Notes: a model not told the origin generated them from the sequence alone. DNA of 64,000 bases from an uncultured Bacilli bacterium (GCA_934182615.1 CAKPRO010000006.1:4771-68770); one strand, 5' to 3'. Numbered from the stretch's first letter, positions 25,972 through 48,884 are shown. Numbers and translations are program-made.

Positions 25972-25999
25972 AAGAAAAAAGCTAGTCATAATAACTAGC
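25972..25999 (-). terminator. Intrinsic terminator
   Basis: Minus strand has GCUAGUUAUUAUGACUAGC followed by UUUUUUCUUUU. It overlaps the stop of the 25995-26543 gene. Confidence 0.65.
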
Positions 26000-26543
26000 C
26001 ATTTAATGTAGCATTCTTACCAGTAGCATATAAATCAAATGATAATGTTTTATTTTGCATAGTATTTGGATTAGTATAATCTTTACCATTAAACCATAAA
26101 TATAAAGTATATTTATCTGTAGTAGTATTAACTACTCTATCAGTAAATAATGTTAAAGTAGTAGTGCCACTACTAGCATAAGTTATATCTTTAAAATTAC
26201 CTTTAGTAACTAAAGTACTATCATTATAATATAATTCATATATAAATGATTCTTCTTTTAATTCACTTGGCATAGTAGTTAAATCCATATATAAACTCAT
26301 AGTACTACCTTCTTCACTTGCTATAACTGTTATATCTTTCTTAATACCTTCTTCTTTACTGTCTACTGGTATTAAAGTACCAGTAACATTACTTCCTCCA
26401 TTAAAAGTAACAGTACTGCCTTCAATACCTACACTAACATTAATATTAGAAGCACTATTCCATCTATAATAAGCATAAGTACCACCAATCATTAATATAA
26501 TTAACCCTATTATTCCTATTATTAATCCTTTATTATTTTTCAT
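25995..26543 (-). CDS. Secreted protein with SipW-type (TasA/camelysin-class) signal peptide
   Basis: N-terminus MKNNKGLIIGIIGLIILMIGGTYAYYRW. It shares a beta-rich domain with the N-terminal regions of 26557-27903 and 42498-44009 (YTLYLWF). Confidence 0.6.
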   Translation of the reverse strand: MKNNKGLIIGIIGLIILMIGGTYAYYRWNSASNINVSVGIEGSTVTFNGGSNVTGTLIPVDSKEEGIKKDITVIASEEGSTMSLYMDLTTMPSELKEESFIYELYYNDSTLVTKGNFKDITYASSGTTTLTLFTDRVVNTTTDKYTLYLWFNGKDYTNPNTMQNKTLSFDLYATGKNATLNG

Positions 26544-26556
26544 ATCTATCCTCTCA

Positions 26557-27903
26557 CTAACTTGGTTGTCCTGTAGTTACTGTTACTGCATTGTATGTAG
26601 TACTTCCTATTGTTTTAGCATTAGTAGTACCTGTTACAAATGTTGTACCTGAACTTCCATTTACTGCTTTATTCCAGTCAAACGCCTTACCAGAATTATT
26701 ATATATGATTTTTAAATTGGGATTATTTATATATTCTACACCAGCAAAAGAAGATCCAGTGTCATTCGAAGTTTCAAAAGCACTACCGGATATACTTGAT
26801 AAATTAGAACCATAATCTATTAATACATAATCCAAATTGTTATTCATAAATGCACCATAGCCTATATCAATTACTGGAGCCGGTATAATAACATCTGTTA
26901 ATTTGTTATAAGCAAATGCGTAACTATCTATTGTGGTCAATGAATTTGATAGTGTAACACTCACCAAATTATTTGACGTAAAAGATTGTTCTCCAATAGA
27001 TAATATTGTGTTAGGCATTATAACACTTGAAATATTAGTGGATTGACTGCAACTATTACCTCCAATCATAGAACTATAACTATATTCAGCACATGCAAAT
27101 CCTTCTTTTATTTTTGTTATTTTATACCCAGCAATAGTATCAGGAATAACTATATCATTAACTACTTTATATCCATTACTATTTCCTTCATAACAATTAT
27201 AACCAACTGAAGATAGTGATGCCGTTTTATTTGTTTCATCTTTATCAGTGATATTGAAACAATATTCAGGTGTAGGTTCTACATATTTACCTTGTTCTGC
27301 ATCAGCACTTATATTACCAATAAATGTTGCTGATGTTATACTATTACCTGCTAGGGCATTATCTACATAGATTACTACTAAATATTTATATATTTCTGTA
27401 TTAGATAATTGTTTGGTAAGTAGTGTTATAGTATCACTACTTGTAATACTACCAGTAGATACTATATCAAATGATTGATTAAGTAAAGAATCTACTGTTA
27501 CCGAAGATGGCGTTGTTATTGTACTAGTATTATCTAACACTACATACTTAAGTGCTCCTTTACTATCTCCAGTAGTAAATGCATCTGATATATTAGTTAC
27601 ATTTAAATATATAGAACCATATCCTTCAATAGTACAAGTAGACTTAATACCTATATTAACCGCTGATATACCTATTCCATTCTTAATAGTAAATTTATTA
27701 CTACTAATTAGATCTGATTCATTAAGTAATTTTAAATTACCACTTATATCTTGTCCTTTAGTATAATCTATAGTAAAACATCCACTTGTTAATCCTATAT
27801 TTATTTTACTACTCGTCCATGTTAGTATAGCGTATGTTAATCCCGATATAGCTAGTATTAATATTATTACTCCTAGTATTATTAATTTCTTTTTCTTTTC
27901 CAT
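26557..27903 (-). CDS. Surface protein with SipW-type signal and C-terminal BspA-like leucine-rich repeats
   Basis: Signal LAISGLTYAILTW. C-terminal LRR units include IPDTIAGYKITKI and SVTLSNSLTTIDSYAFAYNKLTDVIIP. Confidence 0.7.
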   Translation of the reverse strand: MEKKKKLIILGVIILILAISGLTYAILTWTSSKINIGLTSGCFTIDYTKGQDISGNLKLLNESDLISSNKFTIKNGIGISAVNIGIKSTCTIEGYGSIYLNVTNISDAFTTGDSKGALKYVVLDNTSTITTPSSVTVDSLLNQSFDIVSTGSITSSDTITLLTKQLSNTEIYKYLVVIYVDNALAGNSITSATFIGNISADAEQGKYVEPTPEYCFNITDKDETNKTASLSSVGYNCYEGNSNGYKVVNDIVIPDTIAGYKITKIKEGFACAEYSYSSMIGGNSCSQSTNISSVIMPNTILSIGEQSFTSNNLVSVTLSNSLTTIDSYAFAYNKLTDVIIPAPVIDIGYGAFMNNNLDYVLIDYGSNLSSISGSAFETSNDTGSSFAGVEYINNPNLKIIYNNSGKAFDWNKAVNGSSGTTFVTGTTNAKTIGSTTYNAVTVTTGQPS

Positions 27904-27922
27904 GATATCTTCCTTTCTGACA

Positions 27923-27975
27923 TAGTAAAAAGACTATGAAAGACTAGTATTACTACTAGTTACTTCATAGTCTTT
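27923..27975 (-). terminator. Conserved leader terminator, copy 1
   Basis: Minus strand has AAAGACUAUGAAG-(nested hairpin)-CUUUCAUAGUCUUU followed by UUACU, about 20 nt before the ATG at 27903. Confidence 0.7.
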
Positions 27976-28003
27976 ATCTATATTATTATTTAATTTATTT
28001 AAG

Positions 28004-28066
28004 TTAGTTTTGTGCCCCCCCCCTAATTAACTTCTGGTTAACGTTTTTGCATAGTTCTTTATTCAT
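28004..28066 (-). CDS. Leader ORF 1 (20 aa as sequenced) containing the G9 tract
   Basis: SD AAAGGAGG, 9 nt, then the ATG at 28066. Translation is MNKELCKNVNQKLIRGGAQN-stop. With 8 or 11 G the frame continues to the TAG inside the 3' arm of the terminator. Confidence 0.5.
   Translation of the reverse strand: MNKELCKNVNQKLIRGGAQN
28015..28023 (-). repeat. Homopolymeric G9 tract (C9 on plus strand)
   Basis: Counted directly. The equivalent tracts are G6 (44119-44124) and G10 (46190-46199) in the paralogous leaders. Confidence 0.9.
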
Positions 28067-28088
28067 GGTGGGAGGCCTCCTTTCACTG

Positions 28089-28152
28089 TTGATTTGCGAA
28101 TTAATTGGGATCGAAAACTATCGAATTATTTGGGATCTCAATTGCAAATCAA
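28089..28152 (-). promoter_or_regulatory. Conserved imperfect palindrome / 5'-UTR stem-loop, copy 1
   Basis: TTGATTTGCGAATTAATTGGGATC ... GGATCTCAATTGCAAATCAA. The same arms are found at 44203-44240 and 46259-46330. Confidence 0.6.
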
Positions 28153-28171
28153 TTCTCTTACTTATGAATAA

Positions 28172-28200
28172 ATAATACCATAAGTTTAAATAAATTACAA
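28172..28200 (-). promoter_or_regulatory. Sigma-A type promoter with extended -10 (leader 1)
   Basis: Minus strand has TTGTAA, a 17 nt spacer ending in TGg, then TATTAT. Confidence 0.55.
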
Positions 28201-30879: not shown

Positions 30880-30956
30880 TGGTCGGGAAGACAGGATTTG
30901 AACCTGCGACCTCTACGTCCCAAGCGTAGCGCTCTACCAAGCTAAGCTACTTCCCG
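30880..30956 (-). tRNA. tRNA-Pro (anticodon UGG)
   Basis: rc reads CGGGAAGTAGCTTAGCTTGGTAGAGCGCTACGCTTGGGACGTAGAGGTCGCAGGTTCAAATCCTGTCTTCCCGACCA. It folds as a cloverleaf with anticodon loop CUUGGGA and an encoded CCA. Confidence 0.95.
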
Positions 30957-30963
30957 AAAAAAA

Positions 30964-31040
30964 TGGTGGAGAATGAGGGACTCGAACCCTTGACCCTCTG
31001 CGTGCAAGGCAGATGCTCTAGCCAACTGAGCTAATTCCCC
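30964..31040 (-). tRNA. tRNA-Ala (anticodon UGC)
   Basis: rc reads GGGGAATTAGCTCAGTTGGCTAGAGCATCTGCCTTGCACGCAGAGGGTCAAGGGTTCGAGTCCCTCATTCTCCACCA. It has the G3:U70 identity pair and anticodon loop CUUGCAC. Confidence 0.95.
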
Positions 31041-42497: not shown

Positions 42498-44009
42498 CTA
42501 GGATATATGTAAATTATATGGACTACCACTAGTACCATCACCACTACTTATAGATACATCTTTATCTAAATATACTGTTGGATATACATAAGTTCCGTTT
42601 GAATATGCATAAGCAGATCTTAATTGTCCATCTGAAGCCAAGCGAAAAAGAGAAGTTTTATCATAAGCAAGTATAGCTAATAACCACTTATAATCACCAG
42701 TATAAAGCCAATTATTACTCCTACACTCATAATTATTATTACTACTATTATAATTATAAATAGTAAGACCATTACATTTACTAAGATCTGCTGCATAACC
42801 ATAATCACTTGGAGATGCTAAAGCAACGTAACCATTCCATTCAGTATCATTTCCTGCATAAACGTTACCAGATACTCTCTCAGTATTATAATAAACATTA
42901 GGAAACATATCAATAGAAGTTGTGCCTCTTAAGTACCAAGTACTTTCACTTATCATATTTCTAGTAGTGTCATTTTTTAAACCAATGTTACCCATATTAC
43001 ACGTACTAATATTATCAACTGAAGTCGCACCAGAATAGCAACTACCATCTTGCCTATTCCAATATAAACTGCCACCATATTCACTTTCATAATTTGGATT
43101 TAATAATTTCATAAGTCTAGAAGATGGCCAATTACTATTTCCAGTAGTAGCAACATTACCACTATTATCCCAAGAATAAATTCCAATATTATCTTTTCTT
43201 ACAATTTTTACTTTACCATCAACAATACCAATAATTCTCCATAATTCACAAGTACTTGAAGATTGATTACCATAATTATCACAATTAAAATAAACATAAT
43301 TATTAGGATTAGCACCATAATACCTAATATTACCACTTGCATCTGTCATTAGACCATTAGATTCAGTATATTGATAATTAATATTATTATTAATAACAAT
43401 TTTTTTAGAATCATTCTTATTTAATCTTTTAATCTTATAAATAATAGAATTAGAATATATTTCATCATCTATAACTTTCATTGAAGCCTCACACCTAACA
43501 GTAGCACTAATAGTAGCATCCTCTGCTGAAGAAGCATTTTCAACAGTTTCATCAAACCACAAGTATACAGTATACATAGTAGTAGTAGCTTTCAAAGGAA
43601 TATTAACTGCTAATAAATAAGATTCATTTGAAGAAACACCACCTAAAGTACCTTCCGATATTTTACTAGTCCCCTCTACTACAACATACTTTAAAGCATT
43701 ACTACCACTAAGAGCAGAACTAATTTTTGTAATATCTAAATATATATGGCCATATATATCATAAGTATTATCTTTTTTATACAAAGATATATCTATACTA
43801 TTTCCACCAGTATATTCAGTACTTGGATTTAAAATACTCGATGTAATATCAGTTCCTTTTGTATAATTAATATAATAATCCAAACCCTTAGTAATAGTAT
43901 TAACATTAACCGAAGCAAGTACATATTTATAATAAGCATAAGTACTTCCAACTATCGAAATAATTAATACAGTAATTCCAAATATCATATATATTTTATA
44001 TTTATTCAT
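42498..44009 (-). CDS. Secreted protein with SipW-type signal peptide
   Basis: Signal IISIVGSTYAYYKY. The N-terminal domain is shared with the 25995 and 26557 proteins (ALKYVVVEG, YTVYLWF). Likely start is the ATG at 44009. The track GTG at 44021 is the SD. Confidence 0.65.
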   Translation of the reverse strand: MNKYKIYMIFGITVLIISIVGSTYAYYKYVLASVNVNTITKGLDYYINYTKGTDITSSILNPSTEYTGGNSIDISLYKKDNTYDIYGHIYLDITKISSALSGSNALKYVVVEGTSKISEGTLGGVSSNESYLLAVNIPLKATTTMYTVYLWFDETVENASSAEDATISATVRCEASMKVIDDEIYSNSIIYKIKRLNKNDSKKIVINNNINYQYTESNGLMTDASGNIRYYGANPNNYVYFNCDNYGNQSSSTCELWRIIGIVDGKVKIVRKDNIGIYSWDNSGNVATTGNSNWPSSRLMKLLNPNYESEYGGSLYWNRQDGSCYSGATSVDNISTCNMGNIGLKNDTTRNMISESTWYLRGTTSIDMFPNVYYNTERVSGNVYAGNDTEWNGYVALASPSDYGYAADLSKCNGLTIYNYNSSNNNYECRSNNWLYTGDYKWLLAILAYDKTSLFRLASDGQLRSAYAYSNGTYVYPTVYLDKDVSISSGDGTSGSPYNLHIS

Positions 44010-44026
44010 TCTTTTCTCCACACAAA

Positions 44027-44076
44027 AAAGACTATGAAAAAATACTAATACTTCTATTAGTTATTTCATAGTCTTT
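44027..44076 (-). terminator. Conserved leader terminator, copy 2
   Basis: Minus strand has AAAGACUAUGAAA-loop-UUUCAUAGUCUUU followed by UUUGUG. Confidence 0.7.
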
Positions 44077-44184
44077 ATTTATATTATTATTTATTATACT
44101 TAGATTAGATTTTTGAATCCCCCCAACACGTACAAAGGTACTAGTTAACAAGTGGCTAACTTTCGTTATTTTTCTCTCGTTCAT
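44032..44184 (-). CDS. Leader ORF 2 (50 aa, open frame through the terminator)
   Basis: SD GAGGAGGTG then ATG at 44184. Translation is MNERKITKVSHLLTSTFVRVGGIQKSNLSIINNNINKDYEITNRSISIFS-stop. The stop TAG lies in the 3' arm of the terminator. Confidence 0.5.
   Translation of the reverse strand: MNERKITKVSHLLTSTFVRVGGIQKSNLSIINNNINKDYEITNRSISIFS
44119..44124 (-). repeat. Homopolymeric G6 tract
   Basis: Counted directly (C6 on the plus strand). Confidence 0.9.
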
Positions 44185-44202
44185 AGGGGCACCTCCTCTC
44201 TG

Positions 44203-44240
44203 TTGATTTGCGAATTAATTGATATATTTTCGTAAATCAA
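44203..44240 (-). promoter_or_regulatory. Conserved imperfect palindrome / 5'-UTR stem-loop, copy 2
   Basis: TTGATTTGCGAA-ttaattgatatatt-TTCGTAAATCAA. Confidence 0.6.
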
Positions 44241-44262
44241 ACTCATCTTACCCTACATATCA

Positions 44263-44291
44263 ATAGTATCACAAAATTAAACATTTATCAA
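44263..44291 (-). promoter_or_regulatory. Sigma-A type promoter with extended -10 (leader 2)
   Basis: Minus strand has TTGATA, a 17 nt spacer ending in TGa, then TACTAT. Confidence 0.55.
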
Positions 44292-44328: not shown

Positions 44329-46083
44329 TTAACTAACAACTATAACATTAGTCAAATTACTAAAATTAGTATTAATCCATTGTTTCTCAGTATTACTTTT
44401 TACATATATTGCAGCATTATTTGGTATCATATAAAACATCATACTAACATTAGTCAGAGCACTTCCAAAAGTCATATTTCGCATATCGATAAGCATTAGT
44501 TTACTATCATAACTAAACATTGAACTCATATTAGTTACATTTGATGTATCAAAGCCACTTATATTCAGTTTAGTAAGTGATGTACAATACTGAAACATAT
44601 TAAGCATTGTCGTAACTTTAGAAGTATTAAAGTTACTTAAGTCTAACTCTTTAAGTGCATTACATTTTACAAATACTGCATTCATATTAGTCACATTTGA
44701 TGTATCAAAATTAGATAAGTCTATACTTTCTAACGAATTACAATTATAAAACATTTGATACATACTTGTGATTTTGGATGTATTAAAGCTAGATAAATTT
44801 ATACTTGTTAATTTATAACAATGAGCAAACATAACAGTCATATTAGCTACATTTGATGTATTGAAATTGCTTAAATTCAAATTCGTTAATGATTCACAAT
44901 GTGAAAACATACCTTCCATATTAATTACACTTAATGTATTAAAACTACTTATATTTAAGTCTGTAAGTGAAGTACAATATTTGAAAAGGTATTGCATATT
45001 CGTTACATTTGATGTATCAAAATTAGATAAATTCAAACTTTTTATTGAAATACAATTTGCAAACATATACTTCATATCTATTACACTTGATGTATCAAAA
45101 CTAGATAAATCTATGTTTCCCAAACTAACACAATCATTAAACATATAATATATATTTTTAACTTTAGAAGTATTAAAACTACTTACATTTACAGAGGTTA
45201 ATTTTGCACAACCATTAAATAATTCTTCCATACTGGTTACTTTACTTGTATCAAACATACTTAGATCCAAACTAACTACTGATTCACTTTTTTTAAACAT
45301 TTTTACCATATATGTAGTATTTGATGTATCAAAGCCAGTAAAATCCATAGAAATAGTATTAGTTAAATAACTAAAAAGTGAATAACAATTACTAGGAGCA
45401 TATACCTTTCCACTCTCGCCGCCTATATATACATTATATAAATTATCACTGCTTCCCTTTGTGTACCATAACATGACACTACCATCGCCATTTTGTGATA
45501 CATCAAAATTTCCTATAGCATCAGCTGGTACAATATTATCATTAGCTATTGTAAGTGTTTCTATAGTATTTCTAACTAAAGTTGTGCCAAGAAAGTTAGA
45601 AGTTGCACTAACACCACTTTCAGCATTTCTTAATGTATTTATTTGTTTAACTTTATTTTTTACTAAAGTAACACCACTTGGCACTATTAAGTCTCCACCA
45701 TTTTCATAACCCAATATCGTACTTAAAGTAACAGTACTACTTGTAGTTCCATTATTTATTAATTTTAATTTAACAAATTTATTTTCCCCATAATTTATTA
45801 ATCCAGTTTCTGCATCTTTAGTATCTTCATATACTTTGACATCTATATTAGTTCCAGAGTATCCAACTCCATATTTTACAATCCCTTTATTAGCATTATT
45901 CACTTTATAATATACTTTTTTTGATGTTCTAGCAGGTAATTCTATACTAGTACTATCATTAACATCTATTATATAAGTATCATTTTCACCACTAGCAACA
46001 CTGGAAATTGCAAAAGTTTGATATAAAAATCCTATTAGAACTAATATAACAATTGTCAATATAATAATTACTCTCTTTTTCAT
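44329..46083 (-). CDS. BspA-family leucine-rich repeat surface protein (DUF285-type 26-residue repeats)
   Basis: More than 10 repeats of the type F..C.SL.SLDLSNFDTSNVTNM..MF. N-terminal signal/anchor. Likely start is the ATG at 46083. The track GTG at 46095 is the SD. Confidence 0.85.
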   Translation of the reverse strand: MKKRVIIILTIVILVLIGFLYQTFAISSVASGENDTYIIDVNDSTSIELPARTSKKVYYKVNNANKGIVKYGVGYSGTNIDVKVYEDTKDAETGLINYGENKFVKLKLINNGTTSSTVTLSTILGYENGGDLIVPSGVTLVKNKVKQINTLRNAESGVSATSNFLGTTLVRNTIETLTIANDNIVPADAIGNFDVSQNGDGSVMLWYTKGSSDNLYNVYIGGESGKVYAPSNCYSLFSYLTNTISMDFTGFDTSNTTYMVKMFKKSESVVSLDLSMFDTSKVTSMEELFNGCAKLTSVNVSSFNTSKVKNIYYMFNDCVSLGNIDLSSFDTSSVIDMKYMFANCISIKSLNLSNFDTSNVTNMQYLFKYCTSLTDLNISSFNTLSVINMEGMFSHCESLTNLNLSNFNTSNVANMTVMFAHCYKLTSINLSSFNTSKITSMYQMFYNCNSLESIDLSNFDTSNVTNMNAVFVKCNALKELDLSNFNTSKVTTMLNMFQYCTSLTKLNISGFDTSNVTNMSSMFSYDSKLMLIDMRNMTFGSALTNVSMMFYMIPNNAAIYVKSNTEKQWINTNFSNLTNVIVVS

Positions 46084-46099
46084 TTTTGCCTCCACAAAA

Positions 46100-46149
46100 A
46101 AAGACTATGAAAAAGCACTAATACTTCTATTAGTTATTTCATAGTCTTT
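46100..46149 (-). terminator. Conserved leader terminator, copy 3
   Basis: Minus strand has AAAGACUAUGAAA-loop-UUUCAUAGUCUUU followed by UUUUGUG. Confidence 0.7.
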
Positions 46150-46172
46150 ATTTATATTATTATTTATTATAC

Positions 46173-46241
46173 TTAGATTAGATTTTTGACCCCCCCCCCA
46201 ATTAACTTGTGGTTAACTTTTATAAATAATACTTTTTCCAT
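46173..46241 (-). CDS. Leader ORF 3 (22 aa as sequenced) containing the G10 tract
   Basis: SD AAAGGAGG then ATG at 46241. Translation is MEKVLFIKVNHKLIGGGVKNLI-stop. With 8 or 11 G the frame continues to the TAG in the terminator 3' arm. Confidence 0.5.
   Translation of the reverse strand: MEKVLFIKVNHKLIGGGVKNLI
46190..46199 (-). repeat. Homopolymeric G10 tract
   Basis: Counted directly (C10 on the plus strand). Confidence 0.9.
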
Positions 46242-46258
46242 AAGAGGGGCCTCCTTTC

Positions 46259-46330
46259 TGATTTGCGAATTAATTGAGATCAAAACTCTCGAATTATTTA
46301 GAATCTTTTTGGTAAAATTTTGCAAATCAA
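46259..46330 (-). promoter_or_regulatory. Conserved imperfect palindrome / 5'-UTR stem-loop, copy 3
   Basis: TGATTTGCGAATTAATTGAGATC ... TTTTGCAAATCA. Confidence 0.55.
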
Positions 46331-46360
46331 TTATCAATATCTTTTCTATCTTACATATCA

Positions 46361-46389
46361 ATAATATCATAATTAATTTTAAAATGCAA
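46361..46389 (-). promoter_or_regulatory. Sigma-A type promoter with extended -10 (leader 3)
   Basis: Minus strand has TTGCAT, a 17 nt spacer ending in TGa, then TATTAT. Confidence 0.55.
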
Positions 46390-46465
46390 TATTAATTTTT
46401 AAATTATTTATTTACAATAAATATCATTTTTGTTATACTATATATAGAGAATAAGGAGGAACATT

Positions 46466-47173: not shown

Positions 47174-47194
47174 AGATTACAAAAGTAATCTCTA
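47171..47194. terminator. Bidirectional hairpin between convergent mgtC-like gene and sigE
   Basis: TAGAGATTAC-aaaa-GTAATCTCTA. Confidence 0.55.
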
Positions 47195-47881
47195 TAATTT
47201 TATTATATTAGATAATTTTTTAATAACTTTCTTTTCAATTCTAGATATATAAGACTGTGATATTCCAAGTAAATTAGCTACTTCCTTCTGTGTCATTTCC
47301 TTTTTACCATTAAGTCCATATCTAAGTTCAATAATTTCTTTATCCCTTTTACCTAACTTATCTACTTCTTTATACATCAAATATTTATCAAGTTCATCTT
47401 CAATAGGCTTAGTAACAATATCTTCTTTAGTACCAAGAACATCTTCTAAATGAAGTTCATTACCTTCTGAATCAAAAGATAAAGAATCCTCAAATGATAC
47501 TTCAGTTCTTTTTTTCTTTGTTTTCCTAAGATACATAAGTATCTCATTATCTATACATCTAGAAGCATAAGTAGCAAGTTTAATATTCTTATCATTCTGA
47601 TAAGTATTAACTCCCTTAATTAATCCTATTGTCCCAATAGATACTAAATCTTCTAAATCTATCTTAGTATTTTCATATTTCTTAGCTAAAAATACTACTA
47701 ATCTAAGATTATGTTCTATAAGTTTATCCCTCGCATTCATATCACCATTTAAAAACATATTAACATATTTTTCTTCTTCTTCTTTACTAAAAGGTTCTGG
47801 TAATATATCTGTACTTCCTACAAAAAACAAATAATTAAGTTTACTAAATATTCTTCTAAGTAATTTAAGCATTCTCTTCAC
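47192..47881 (-). CDS. sigE: Sporulation sigma factor SigE (pro-sigma-E)
   Basis: Pro-sequence followed by YFVGSTDILPEPFSKEEE..HNLRLVVFLAKKYENT..ISIGTIGLIKGVNTY..KLATYASRCIDNEILMYLRK. Immediately downstream of spoIIGA. Confidence 0.85.
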   Translation of the reverse strand: MKRMLKLLRRIFSKLNYLFFVGSTDILPEPFSKEEEEKYVNMFLNGDMNARDKLIEHNLRLVVFLAKKYENTKIDLEDLVSIGTIGLIKGVNTYQNDKNIKLATYASRCIDNEILMYLRKTKKKRTEVSFEDSLSFDSEGNELHLEDVLGTKEDIVTKPIEDELDKYLMYKEVDKLGKRDKEIIELRYGLNGKKEMTQKEVANLLGISQSYISRIEKKVIKKLSNIIKL

Positions 47882-48618
47882 CCTTTCATAATATCTTTAT
47901 GTAATATAACATCTACTCCATCAATAAGTTTAGGACTATCAGAAAAACCTATTAAAATATTTCCCTTATACCCTATTCCATCAATAAATATAATATCTGG
48001 TTTAATACATTTAAGTAATCCTTCTCCACTCATAGTATAATAAGGAACTAATATATAATTATCTTCTCTAATATATTTATTAGATAATAATATAATAGGT
48101 CTCTTTTTATAAGGATCATATAAATTATTCCCCGTATCTACAAAACCTACTACTGATATCTTACTTTTATCTTTAAAATATATGTCTACCTTATAATAAT
48201 TATTATAAATATTTTTAATCTTTCTACTTTCTTTAATATATAATATTAAAACTAAACTACTAATAACAATTATAATAAAATAATTAATAAATATATTATT
48301 AGATACCTTAACATTAAATAAATATATAATACCCCCTATCAAAGTACTAAGTAAATACATATAAAATATATTTCTAAGTACATATTTAACTCCCTTATAT
48401 CCAAAAGATATAAGTACCATAATAATAATACTTATAACTTCAATTAATATCTTATTAATATTATTAAATAATAATACTGAAGAAATACCTCCTATCAAAG
48501 ATGAAATTATAATTCTAATAAGATTACTATTTCTCTTTAATATAATTGAAGTACCAAGTATAATCATAAAATCCATAATAGTATTAAACAAAAAAAATAA
48601 ATCAATATATATTCTCAT
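47878..48618 (-). CDS. spoIIGA: Sigma-E processing aspartic peptidase SpoIIGA
   Basis: MRIYIDLFFLFNTIMDFMIILGTSIILKR matches the SpoIIGA N-terminus. Has the VDTGN aspartic protease motif. The start is uncertain (48618 ATG or the 48669 GTG of the track). Confidence 0.8.
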   Translation of the reverse strand: MRIYIDLFFLFNTIMDFMIILGTSIILKRNSNLIRIIISSLIGGISSVLLFNNINKILIEVISIIIMVLISFGYKGVKYVLRNIFYMYLLSTLIGGIIYLFNVKVSNNIFINYFIIIVISSLVLILYIKESRKIKNIYNNYYKVDIYFKDKSKISVVGFVDTGNNLYDPYKKRPIILLSNKYIREDNYILVPYYTMSGEGLLKCIKPDIIFIDGIGYKGNILIGFSDSPKLIDGVDVILHKDIMKG

Positions 48619-48668
48619 ATATTGATTATAAAAAAAAGAATATAAATATCTTGTCGATTTATATTCCA

Positions 48669-48884
48669 CTATTCAAATAATTTATTCTCATCTCCAGAGC
48701 AATAGCCACCGCCTACTTTAGCACCTTCAACATATTCCTTACCAGAAATATTACATCCCATCTTAGTAACAGCATCTTGTAAATATCCTCCAAAGATTTT
48801 TACTAATCCTATTGCTACTACTGTAATTAAAGATATAATAAGTACATATTCTACTAATGTTTGACCTTTTCTATTCAACTTCAT
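48669..48884 (-). CDS. Flp-family (type IVb) prepilin-like protein
   Basis: MKLNRKGQTLVEYVLIISLITVVAIGLV matches the class III signal G/(Q)TLVEY motif plus a hydrophobic helix. Likely start is at 48884. Confidence 0.6.
   Translation of the reverse strand: MKLNRKGQTLVEYVLIISLITVVAIGLVKIFGGYLQDAVTKMGCNISGKEYVEGAKVGGGYCSGDENKLFE

Follow-up and report, generated by a model that had tools for sequence, protein, structure and literature searches.

The 64,000-nt stretch of DNA analyzed here (hereafter the window; CAKPRO010000006.1:4771-68770), from an uncultured Bacilli bacterium, contains three related leaders, all on the minus strand, that precede genes for surface or secreted proteins. Each leader holds a G tract inside a short leader open reading frame (ORF), followed by an intrinsic terminator ahead of the main gene. 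Taken as a complete mechanism, each leader probably acts as a phase-variable transcription attenuator, a reading in which we place moderate confidence. Tract length differs between heritable alleles, the reading frames past the tract follow a recurrent architecture, and the terminator carries compensatory pairs. Comparison with known systems supports viewing the leaders as a homopolymer, multi-locus variant of the pil1/pil3 type of switch of Streptococcus gallolyticus, a switch type that has itself already been described.

In the proposed mechanism, a sigma-A-type promoter would start a leader of about 270 nt, and a GGAGG-N7-9-ATG signal would load a ribosome onto the short leader ORF that holds the G tract. 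Slipped-strand mispairing during DNA replication would alter the tract by one G in either direction, and such changes in length are seen among populations. For two of the three resulting length classes, the ribosome would stop 2-7 codons past the tract, 23-28 nt before the hairpin, and leave; with the ribosome gone, a terminator of -20 to -27 kcal/mol would fold and most transcripts would end before the surface-protein gene (OFF). For the third class, the ORF would stay open across the 5′ arm of the terminator and end within the hairpin, as a rule at the 3′-arm TAG, and a ribosome trailing the polymerase would cover the 5′ arm, prevent the hairpin and let transcription enter the gene (ON). We infer translation of the leader ORF, termination at the hairpin and the identity of the long frame with the ON state, and with them the effect on read-through, from the anatomy of the leader and from the experiments on S. 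gallolyticus pil1. The preliminary description of this DNA had proposed that tract length switches the terminator through leader translation; of this proposal the alleles, the frames and the terminator have held up, while the effect on read-through is predicted.

The same description had assigned to the three leaders a common promoter, stem-loop, Shine-Dalgarno sequence (SD) with an ATG-initiated ORF, G tract and terminator, and sequence reading together with an alignment of the three regions recovered every one of these elements on the minus strand of copies 1, 2 and 3. In copy 1, the ribosome-binding site (RBS, 28064..28080) consists of GGAGG at 28080-28076, the pyrimidine spacer CCTCCCACC and ATG at 28066-28064. 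The G9 tract (28015..28023), recognized as the frame-setting repeat from the homopolymer itself and from homologue comparison, lies 112 nt 5′ of the main ATG at 27903 with the terminator in between, and about 150 nt 3′ of the -10 element; it is thus within the transcribed leader and not between -35 and -10. As assembled, the ORF reads MNKELCKNVNQKLIRGGAQN and stops at TAA 28006-28004 (28004..28066), 28 nt before the terminator stem, which predicts the OFF state. The frame arithmetic of the preliminary description proved correct: G9 and G10 both stop early, whereas G8 or G11 would read on through HKTNLNKLNNNIDKDYEVTSSNTSLS (27934..28014) into the terminator 3′ arm, where TAG 27936-27934 ends the frame. 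The terminator itself (27924..27975), AAAGACUAUGAA...UUCAUAGUCUUU, includes an inner stem as well as a U run and is supported by its fold and by compensatory changes in homologues; the hairpin AAAGACTATGAA...TTCATAGTCTTT at 27975-27929, followed by a T run, has a folding energy of -22.7 kcal/mol (z = -5.1).

Copy 2 (44010..44291) has its promoter at 44291-44263, GGAGG at 44196-44192, ATG at 44184-44182, a G6 tract at 44124-44119 and the terminator at 44076-44027, and is natively in the long frame, with a 50-amino-acid (aa) ORF that stops at TAG 44034-44032. Copy 3 (46084..46389) has GGAGG at 46254-46250, ATG at 46241-46239, a G10 tract at 46199-46190, its native stop at 46175-46173 and the terminator at 46149-46100. 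The terminator hairpins of copies 1-3 reach -22.7, -19.7 and -22.1 kcal/mol, with z between -5 and -6. The three tracts do stand out in this AT-rich DNA, as had been claimed: at 26.2% G+C, the window contains only three G or C runs of 6 nt or longer, and these are the tracts G9, G6 and G10. The 17-mer AATTAATTCGCAAATCA occurs exactly three times in the window, as does the terminator-arm pattern, for which 0 of 100 shuffles gave any match.

Homologous leaders were sought in species-representative genomes and in metagenomes with a pattern made up of the 3′ arm of the first hairpin and GGAGG. The genome scan returned 15 loci, one of them a chance match, and the metagenome scan 62, among them four chance matches and two apparent chimeras; L011, L033, L043, L054 and L055 were set aside as chance matches. 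A profile search of all recovered sequence added one further leader copy. In total, about 70 homologous leaders were obtained from related gut metagenome-assembled genomes (MAGs) and metagenomes. GGAGG and the leader ATG are invariant among 45 unique leaders, but because GGAGG and the hairpin arm were both required by the scan pattern, the conservation of these two carries no independent weight; the pattern did not include the ATG, tract, frames or terminator.

The clearest evidence for a variable tract comes from the copy-3 locus, for which contigs from other samples were found by exact look-up of the 584-aa product. Nine contigs of one leader type are identical over 2,000 bases 3′ of the tract, and the seven of them also compared over 400 bases 5′ show 0-3 mismatches. 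Five carry G9 (L081, L085, L086, L088, L090), one G10 (L084) and three G11 (L082, L087, L089). L081, L084 and L087 have 0 mismatches across both flanks (400 nt 5′ and 2,000 nt 3′), with tracts of G9, G10 and G11 respectively. Invariant tract lengths, which the preliminary description had named as evidence against a switch, are therefore not what this locus displays. With G11, the copy-3 ORF extends to 51 aa and ends at TCA-TAG in the terminator 3′ arm, and public gene calls list this 51-aa ORF only in the G11 contigs.

Variation is also seen elsewhere. In a separate set of five contigs that are 99-100% identical, the sole indel in about 600 nt is a G9/G10 difference. The search of related genomes for the same leader with varying G counts, which had been proposed as a check, yielded an ortholog set of 15 with G7, G8, G9 and G10, the G8 allele being in the long frame. 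For one leader type (L010, L059, L080), G6 and G9 are in frame and G10 is out of frame. Across 529 kb of related DNA (26-35% G+C), 63 of 65 G or C runs of at least 7 nt fall within leaders. The copy-2 tract, G6ATT, is invariant in the window and in all 11 other contigs, and always in the long frame. More generally, the long frame is found for 19 of 22 contig instances of short or decayed tracts (G6, AAGAGGGG, AAGAAGGG), counts that are not phylogenetically independent and in which 12 of the 19 represent the same copy-2 locus. For copy 1, an exact-protein look-up with the downstream gene gave no match, so that sightings of this leader number only three, all G9 (window, L002, L028). Taken together, the allele comparisons make the G tract almost certainly a hypermutable contingency repeat.

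Two side observations concern the tracts and their surroundings. Although 74% A+T, the window lacks A or T runs of 9 nt or more (48 runs of at least 7 nt, 9 of at least 8 nt), and the leaders keep G9 and G10; long homopolymers other than those acting as switches seem to be avoided. In addition, the 5′ half of the copy-3 leader (46200-46400, minus strand, compared with approximately 1190-1500 in L081-L089) is mosaic: most samples carry a copy-2-type MNERKITKVSHLLTSTFVRV... half, while the window and L083 carry a MEKVLFIKVNHKLI-type half before the identical 584-aa gene. This mosaic structure points to recombination or gene conversion between paralogous leaders.

The arrangement of reading frames past the tract gives the second line of evidence. 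In most leaders that reach the terminator, exactly one of the three post-tract frames continues without a stop into the terminator hairpin. This frame usually closes at the TAG in the 3′ arm or, in some types, 11-13 or 26 nt ahead of that arm; the remaining two close 2-7 codons past the tract, 23-28 nt before the stem. This layout of one open and two closed frames recurs among diverged leader types. Depending on leader type, the 5′ arm AAAGACUAU encodes KDY or KTI, which indicates that an open path for the ribosome has been kept rather than a peptide sequence. Five indels within the ORF have lengths divisible by three: the L010 type has +9 and +12, copy 2 has +18, L030 has -6 and L004 has +9. 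A deletion variant (L063:6544-6623, minus strand; L067:124-203, plus strand) is without the ORF body, the GTTAAC hairpin described below, the tract and the spacer; an in-frame fusion joins its leader ATG to ATGAAA in the terminator 5′ arm, giving a 12-codon ORF, MKITNSNISIFS, that ends at TCA-TAG. The terminator hairpin of this variant is shortened yet still present. Among the homologues, terminators range from -20 to -27 kcal/mol with z of -5 to -7, carry a U run and show compensatory changes at 3 pairs.

Several observations weigh against an attenuator switched by tract length. Tracts of at least 7 nt are in the long frame in 8 of 52 contig instances (15%), compared with 33% expected at random, although these instances too are not phylogenetically independent. 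Some decayed tracts are fixed in the OFF configuration (L024/L044, L036, L061, L073). Homopolymer length errors are possible in short-read assemblies, yet the same alleles recur in 3-5 independent samples. Two indels 3′ of the tract are not multiples of three: an 11-nt insert in one leader type, where the frame into the terminator is still open, and a +2 insert in L071, which has no open frame in any phase. For any one leader type considered alone, shuffled sequence not infrequently gives a frame that is open from the tract into the terminator (P = 0.15-0.5 per leader type), and homology among the types means that they do not count as independent trials. By codon-position entropy, variation in the N-terminal part of the ORF shows no excess at third positions, and thus no coding signature. 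The helix between spacer and tract, considered next, would occlude the leader's own RBS. Finally, to our knowledge tight coupling of transcription and translation is not general in Firmicutes, as in Bacillus subtilis, although the streptococcal precedent indicates that coupling can work.

The leaders contain two further RNA features. The first, unremarked in the preliminary description, is the pyrimidine spacer between GGAGG and ATG, which is odd for a genome of 26% G+C and is complementary to the tract in every leader, with 8-11 bp and -9 to -21 kcal/mol among 36 distinct spacer/tract combinations. All three minimum free energy (MFE) folds from the window pair the C/U spacer with the tract, in a helix that also covers the final Gs of the SD and the initial A of AUG. 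The pairing persists in decayed tracts: AAGAGGGG and CCCCUCUU are perfectly complementary in the Watson-Crick sense, and in L061 a C in the tract faces a G in the spacer. RNAalifold missed the helix because gaps in the tract break the alignment, and duplex energies were used instead; a permutation test of own versus swapped partners gave a marginal P = 0.04. By these energies, the transcribed tract probably also closes the leader's own RBS. The second feature is a GTTAAC-N5-GTTAAT(C) stem within the leader ORF (28026-28042, 44138-44154 and 46203-46219, minus strand), identical in 44 of 45 unique leaders with a freely varying 5-nt loop. Its codons, for Val, Asn and Leu, show no synonymous variation, which indicates nucleotide-level constraint and suggests a sequence-specific binding site on RNA or DNA.

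Both features would be expected if the leader were a structured regulatory RNA, riboswitch-like or protein-binding, in which the tract simply supplies a helix strand, the ORF is a by-product, and changes in tract length are neutral or do no more than tune helix stability. We consider this unlikely as the sole explanation. Against Rfam 15, at gathering and at permissive thresholds, the leaders match no family (best E = 0.25, to unrelated miRNA and snoRNA models), the preference for own over swapped partners is only marginal, and a structured RNA leaves unexplained the indels in multiples of three, the single frame into the terminator, the short tracts in that frame and the long ORF of G11 alleles. 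It can nevertheless coexist with the attenuator as a second layer. A reading in which the tract acts with no change in DNA, by RNA polymerase slippage or ribosomal frameshifting on G9-G11 and with graded, non-heritable expression as the outcome, also appears unlikely. It would account for the clustering of tract lengths at 9-10 nt, close to the RNA:DNA hybrid length that allows efficient transcriptional slippage, and for the fact that most assembled alleles are out of frame; however, heritable length alleles are directly seen in DNA, the shift needed differs between copies (-1 nt in copy 1, +1 nt in copy 3) and no downstream stimulatory structure is evident. Slippage or frameshifting may add leakiness to the genetic switch.

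Long-frame translation might instead act after transcription, by opening the hairpin just 5′ of the main SD or by stabilizing the mRNA. The spacing would fit, with about 25-30 nt from the long-frame stop to the main ATG and about 10-15 nt from the end of the hairpin to the main SD, but that SD lies outside the hairpin, the hairpin is shaped like an intrinsic terminator, U run included, and the corresponding effect in S. gallolyticus was at the transcript level (PMC3894217); we regard this route as distinctly improbable. It is very improbable that the long-frame product of about 50 aa is itself a phase-variable small protein, with the hairpin as the small gene's own terminator. Gene callers do annotate a 50-51-aa ORF when it is in frame, but its C-terminal half is read in different frames according to leader type (KDY versus KTI) and is not conserved in sequence, there is no room for a separate promoter between hairpin and main gene, and the codon-position signature of a protein is absent. 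Two local structures were considered and rejected. An antiterminator pairing with the terminator 5′ arm could be drawn for AUAGUCU past the tract in some types (5-7 bp); this pairing lacks conservation, and the leader type of the window does not have it. Nor can a G-quadruplex arise within one molecule from a single G run.

The attenuator and the additional RNA features could be combined in a two-input device, which we offer as a tentative extension. The G tract would both set the frame and form the 3′ strand of the helix that closes its own RBS, so that a ribosome would have to load within a window of about 55 nt, before the tract is transcribed, in order to escort the polymerase; the GUUAAC hairpin and the 5′ hairpin would be docking sites for a factor. 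Were this so, even frame-locked copies would be conditionally regulated, and the design may account for poly-G tracts in the 5′ untranslated regions (UTRs) of surface-protein families in Mollicutes.

The remaining parts of the leader lie 5′ of the RBS. For copy 1, the promoter scan placed a TG-extended promoter at 28172..28200 (-35 TTGTAA, 17-nt spacer, -10 TATTAT), a layout kept in homologues. For copy 3, we read -35 TTGCAT (46389-46384) and -10 TATTAT (46366-46361) from the sequence by eye, whereas the scan gave a shifted pairing, TTAATA-18-TATGAT, at 46395-46366. An internal TATAAT between tract and terminator was rejected as a promoter: no usable -35 accompanies it, and RNA started there would include the terminator anyway. 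The 5′ hairpin of copy 1 (P1, 28089..28152), found in MFE folds, is formed by the arms TTGATTTGC (28152-28144) and GCAAATCAA (28097-28089), which are retained with variable inserts among homologues. Its loop (28098-28143, minus strand) holds one to three direct copies of a unit of about 24 nt (GATCCCAAATAATTCG plus a few bases), also found in L008, L009, L016 and L018; the copy number of this unit differs between leaders, and copy 2 has none.

The genes predicted to be controlled by the leaders are all on the minus strand. Gene 1 (26557..27903) encodes a 448-aa surface protein with BspA-type leucine-rich repeats (LRRs) and is followed by a partner gene of 182 aa (25995-26543); gene 2 (42498..44009) encodes a 503-aa secreted protein with no Pfam domain; and gene 3 (44329..46083) encodes a 584-aa DUF285/PARCEL-repeat surface protein. 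The controlled proteins have in common an N-terminal signal-anchor ending in (G/S)(L/T)TYA(Y/I) (27820-27903, 43930-44009, 26460-26543). A SipW-type signal peptide, suggested by this motif, was not confirmed and had no NCBIfam match. The neighborhood is chromosomal, with mraZ-rsmH-ftsL-pbp, ddl, ruvA and spoIIGA-sigE; spoIIGA (Peptidase_U4) and the sigE-like sigma factor adjoin the copy-3 locus (47192-48669, minus strand). When the whole window was compared with Rfam 15, only two tRNAs reached the gathering score, and the two tRNA genes lie at 30883-30956 and 30967-31040 on the minus strand.

Related contigs carry the labels uncultured Bacilli, 'Tenericutes' and Clostridium sp. CAG:302, and all come from the human gut. 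A related complete MAG is only 1.46 Mb, and some related records are labeled Tenericutes. The MAG CAKPIH01 carries at least six leader copies in the contigs recovered. Many contigs end at or inside a leader, as a repeated element is expected to break assembly. Three break exactly within the G tract (L048 at the contig end, L070:11599-11666 at the contig end, L090:30 at the contig start), and such breaks in tract or leader are consistent with repeat-induced assembly breaks or with tract heterogeneity within a sample. In L058 (from 1466) the first leader-ORF codons are joined to an unrelated lipoprotein-like ORF, and in L066 (from 436) to unrelated GatB-like sequence; both joins are probably assembly chimeras at the common ATGAAAAAAGTA... 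start.

If the attenuator mechanism is correct, these leaders would be the second phase-variable leader-peptide attenuator in the literature searched and the first built on a homopolymer. They would form a portable cassette of about 270 nt placed before many surface-protein genes (BspA-LRR, DUF285/PARCEL) in an uncultured human-gut lineage with small genomes, and the ON or OFF state of the controlled genes could be read from metagenome sequence alone. This suggests how such gut bacteria may vary their surface in the host, and offers a possible mechanism for the poly-G tracts found 5′ of Mycoplasma surface-protein genes.

Parts of the proposed logic are familiar from other systems. For pyrBI and pyrE (rph) of Escherichia coli, a leader or upstream ORF runs into or near an intrinsic terminator, and a close ribosome suppresses the hairpin; the rph-1 frameshift of strain K-12 is an upstream change of frame that raises termination. 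These operons respond to UTP-dependent polymerase pausing, have no hypermutable repeat and are not stochastic switches. Classical repeat phase variation, with poly-G in coding regions (Campylobacter, Neisseria) or tracts in promoter spacers, gives stochastic, heritable ON/OFF expression of surface proteins. The G8-G11 lengths seen here resemble Campylobacter contingency loci, but the tract is in neither a structural gene nor a promoter spacer. In cwpV of Clostridioides difficile, a variable element likewise decides whether a leader terminator forms, although it switches by site-specific inversion, with no slippage or translation involved.

Two further systems resemble single features of the leaders. 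In Haemophilus influenzae hmw1A, a phase-variable repeat is transcribed in the 5′ UTR and pairs with a G-rich arm of the same leader (PMC12721329). As here, a transcribed repeat pairs with a complementary, purine/pyrimidine-biased leader segment; the hmw1A hairpin is long, is cut by RNase III in a manner graded with repeat number and has no leader-ORF or terminator logic, whereas the helix here is 8-11 bp. In Mycoplasma agalactiae 5632, a poly-G tract (up to G13) of unexplained role lies in the 5′ UTR of each spma surface-protein gene (PMC2824730). G runs 5′ of a surface-protein family, a very AT-rich genome and a related lineage with DUF285 proteins are common to both; compared by description only, the spma genes have no reported leader ORF or terminator.

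The closest system is that of S. gallolyticus, the only one in the literature searched that joins a leader peptide, slipped-strand mispairing and anti-termination. It removes the novelty implied by the preliminary description, which knew of no switch that combines homopolymer slippage with leader-peptide antitermination. The leader-peptide gene of pil1 carries a variable number of GCAGA repeats (Danne et al. 2014, PMC3894217). Expression is low with the short peptide, whose stop lies 39 bp before a stem-loop of -18.7 kcal/mol; out-of-frame repeat changes extend the peptide into or past the hairpin and give high expression (PMC3894217). This logic was confirmed with delta-terminator, ATG and stop-codon mutants, pil3 behaves alike, and the pil1 switch is also functional in Lactococcus lactis (PMC3894217).

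The leaders described here have the four sequence-level features of this type, namely an RBS with an ATG-initiated leader ORF, a variable repeat, a premature terminator and a frame-dependent stop. As in pil1/pil3, a promoter and a slippage-prone repeat within the ORF precede a stem-loop terminator and genes for surface structures, the short peptide stops tens of nucleotides before the hairpin and the longer one within it, repeat number varies among isolates or populations, and the terminators are of similar strength (-18.7 and -28.2 kcal/mol in pil1/pil3, -20 to -27 kcal/mol here). There is no sequence homology between the two: neither a GCAGA array nor similarity to the pil1 leader was found in the three window leaders, which instead carry a G homopolymer and are thus analogs, not homologs, of pil1. 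The repeat unit is 1 nt with a total of 6-11 nt, compared with 13-22 GCAGA units, and one frame in three is long, compared with two in three. The host is an uncultured gut Bacilli lineage with a small genome, in which the system is known from sequence. The cassette is multi-copy (three in the window, at least six in one MAG) and precedes BspA-LRR and DUF285/PARCEL genes where pil1/pil3 drive sortase pili, and it adds to the common plan a 5′ hairpin, a helix between RBS spacer and tract, and an invariant GUUAAC hairpin.

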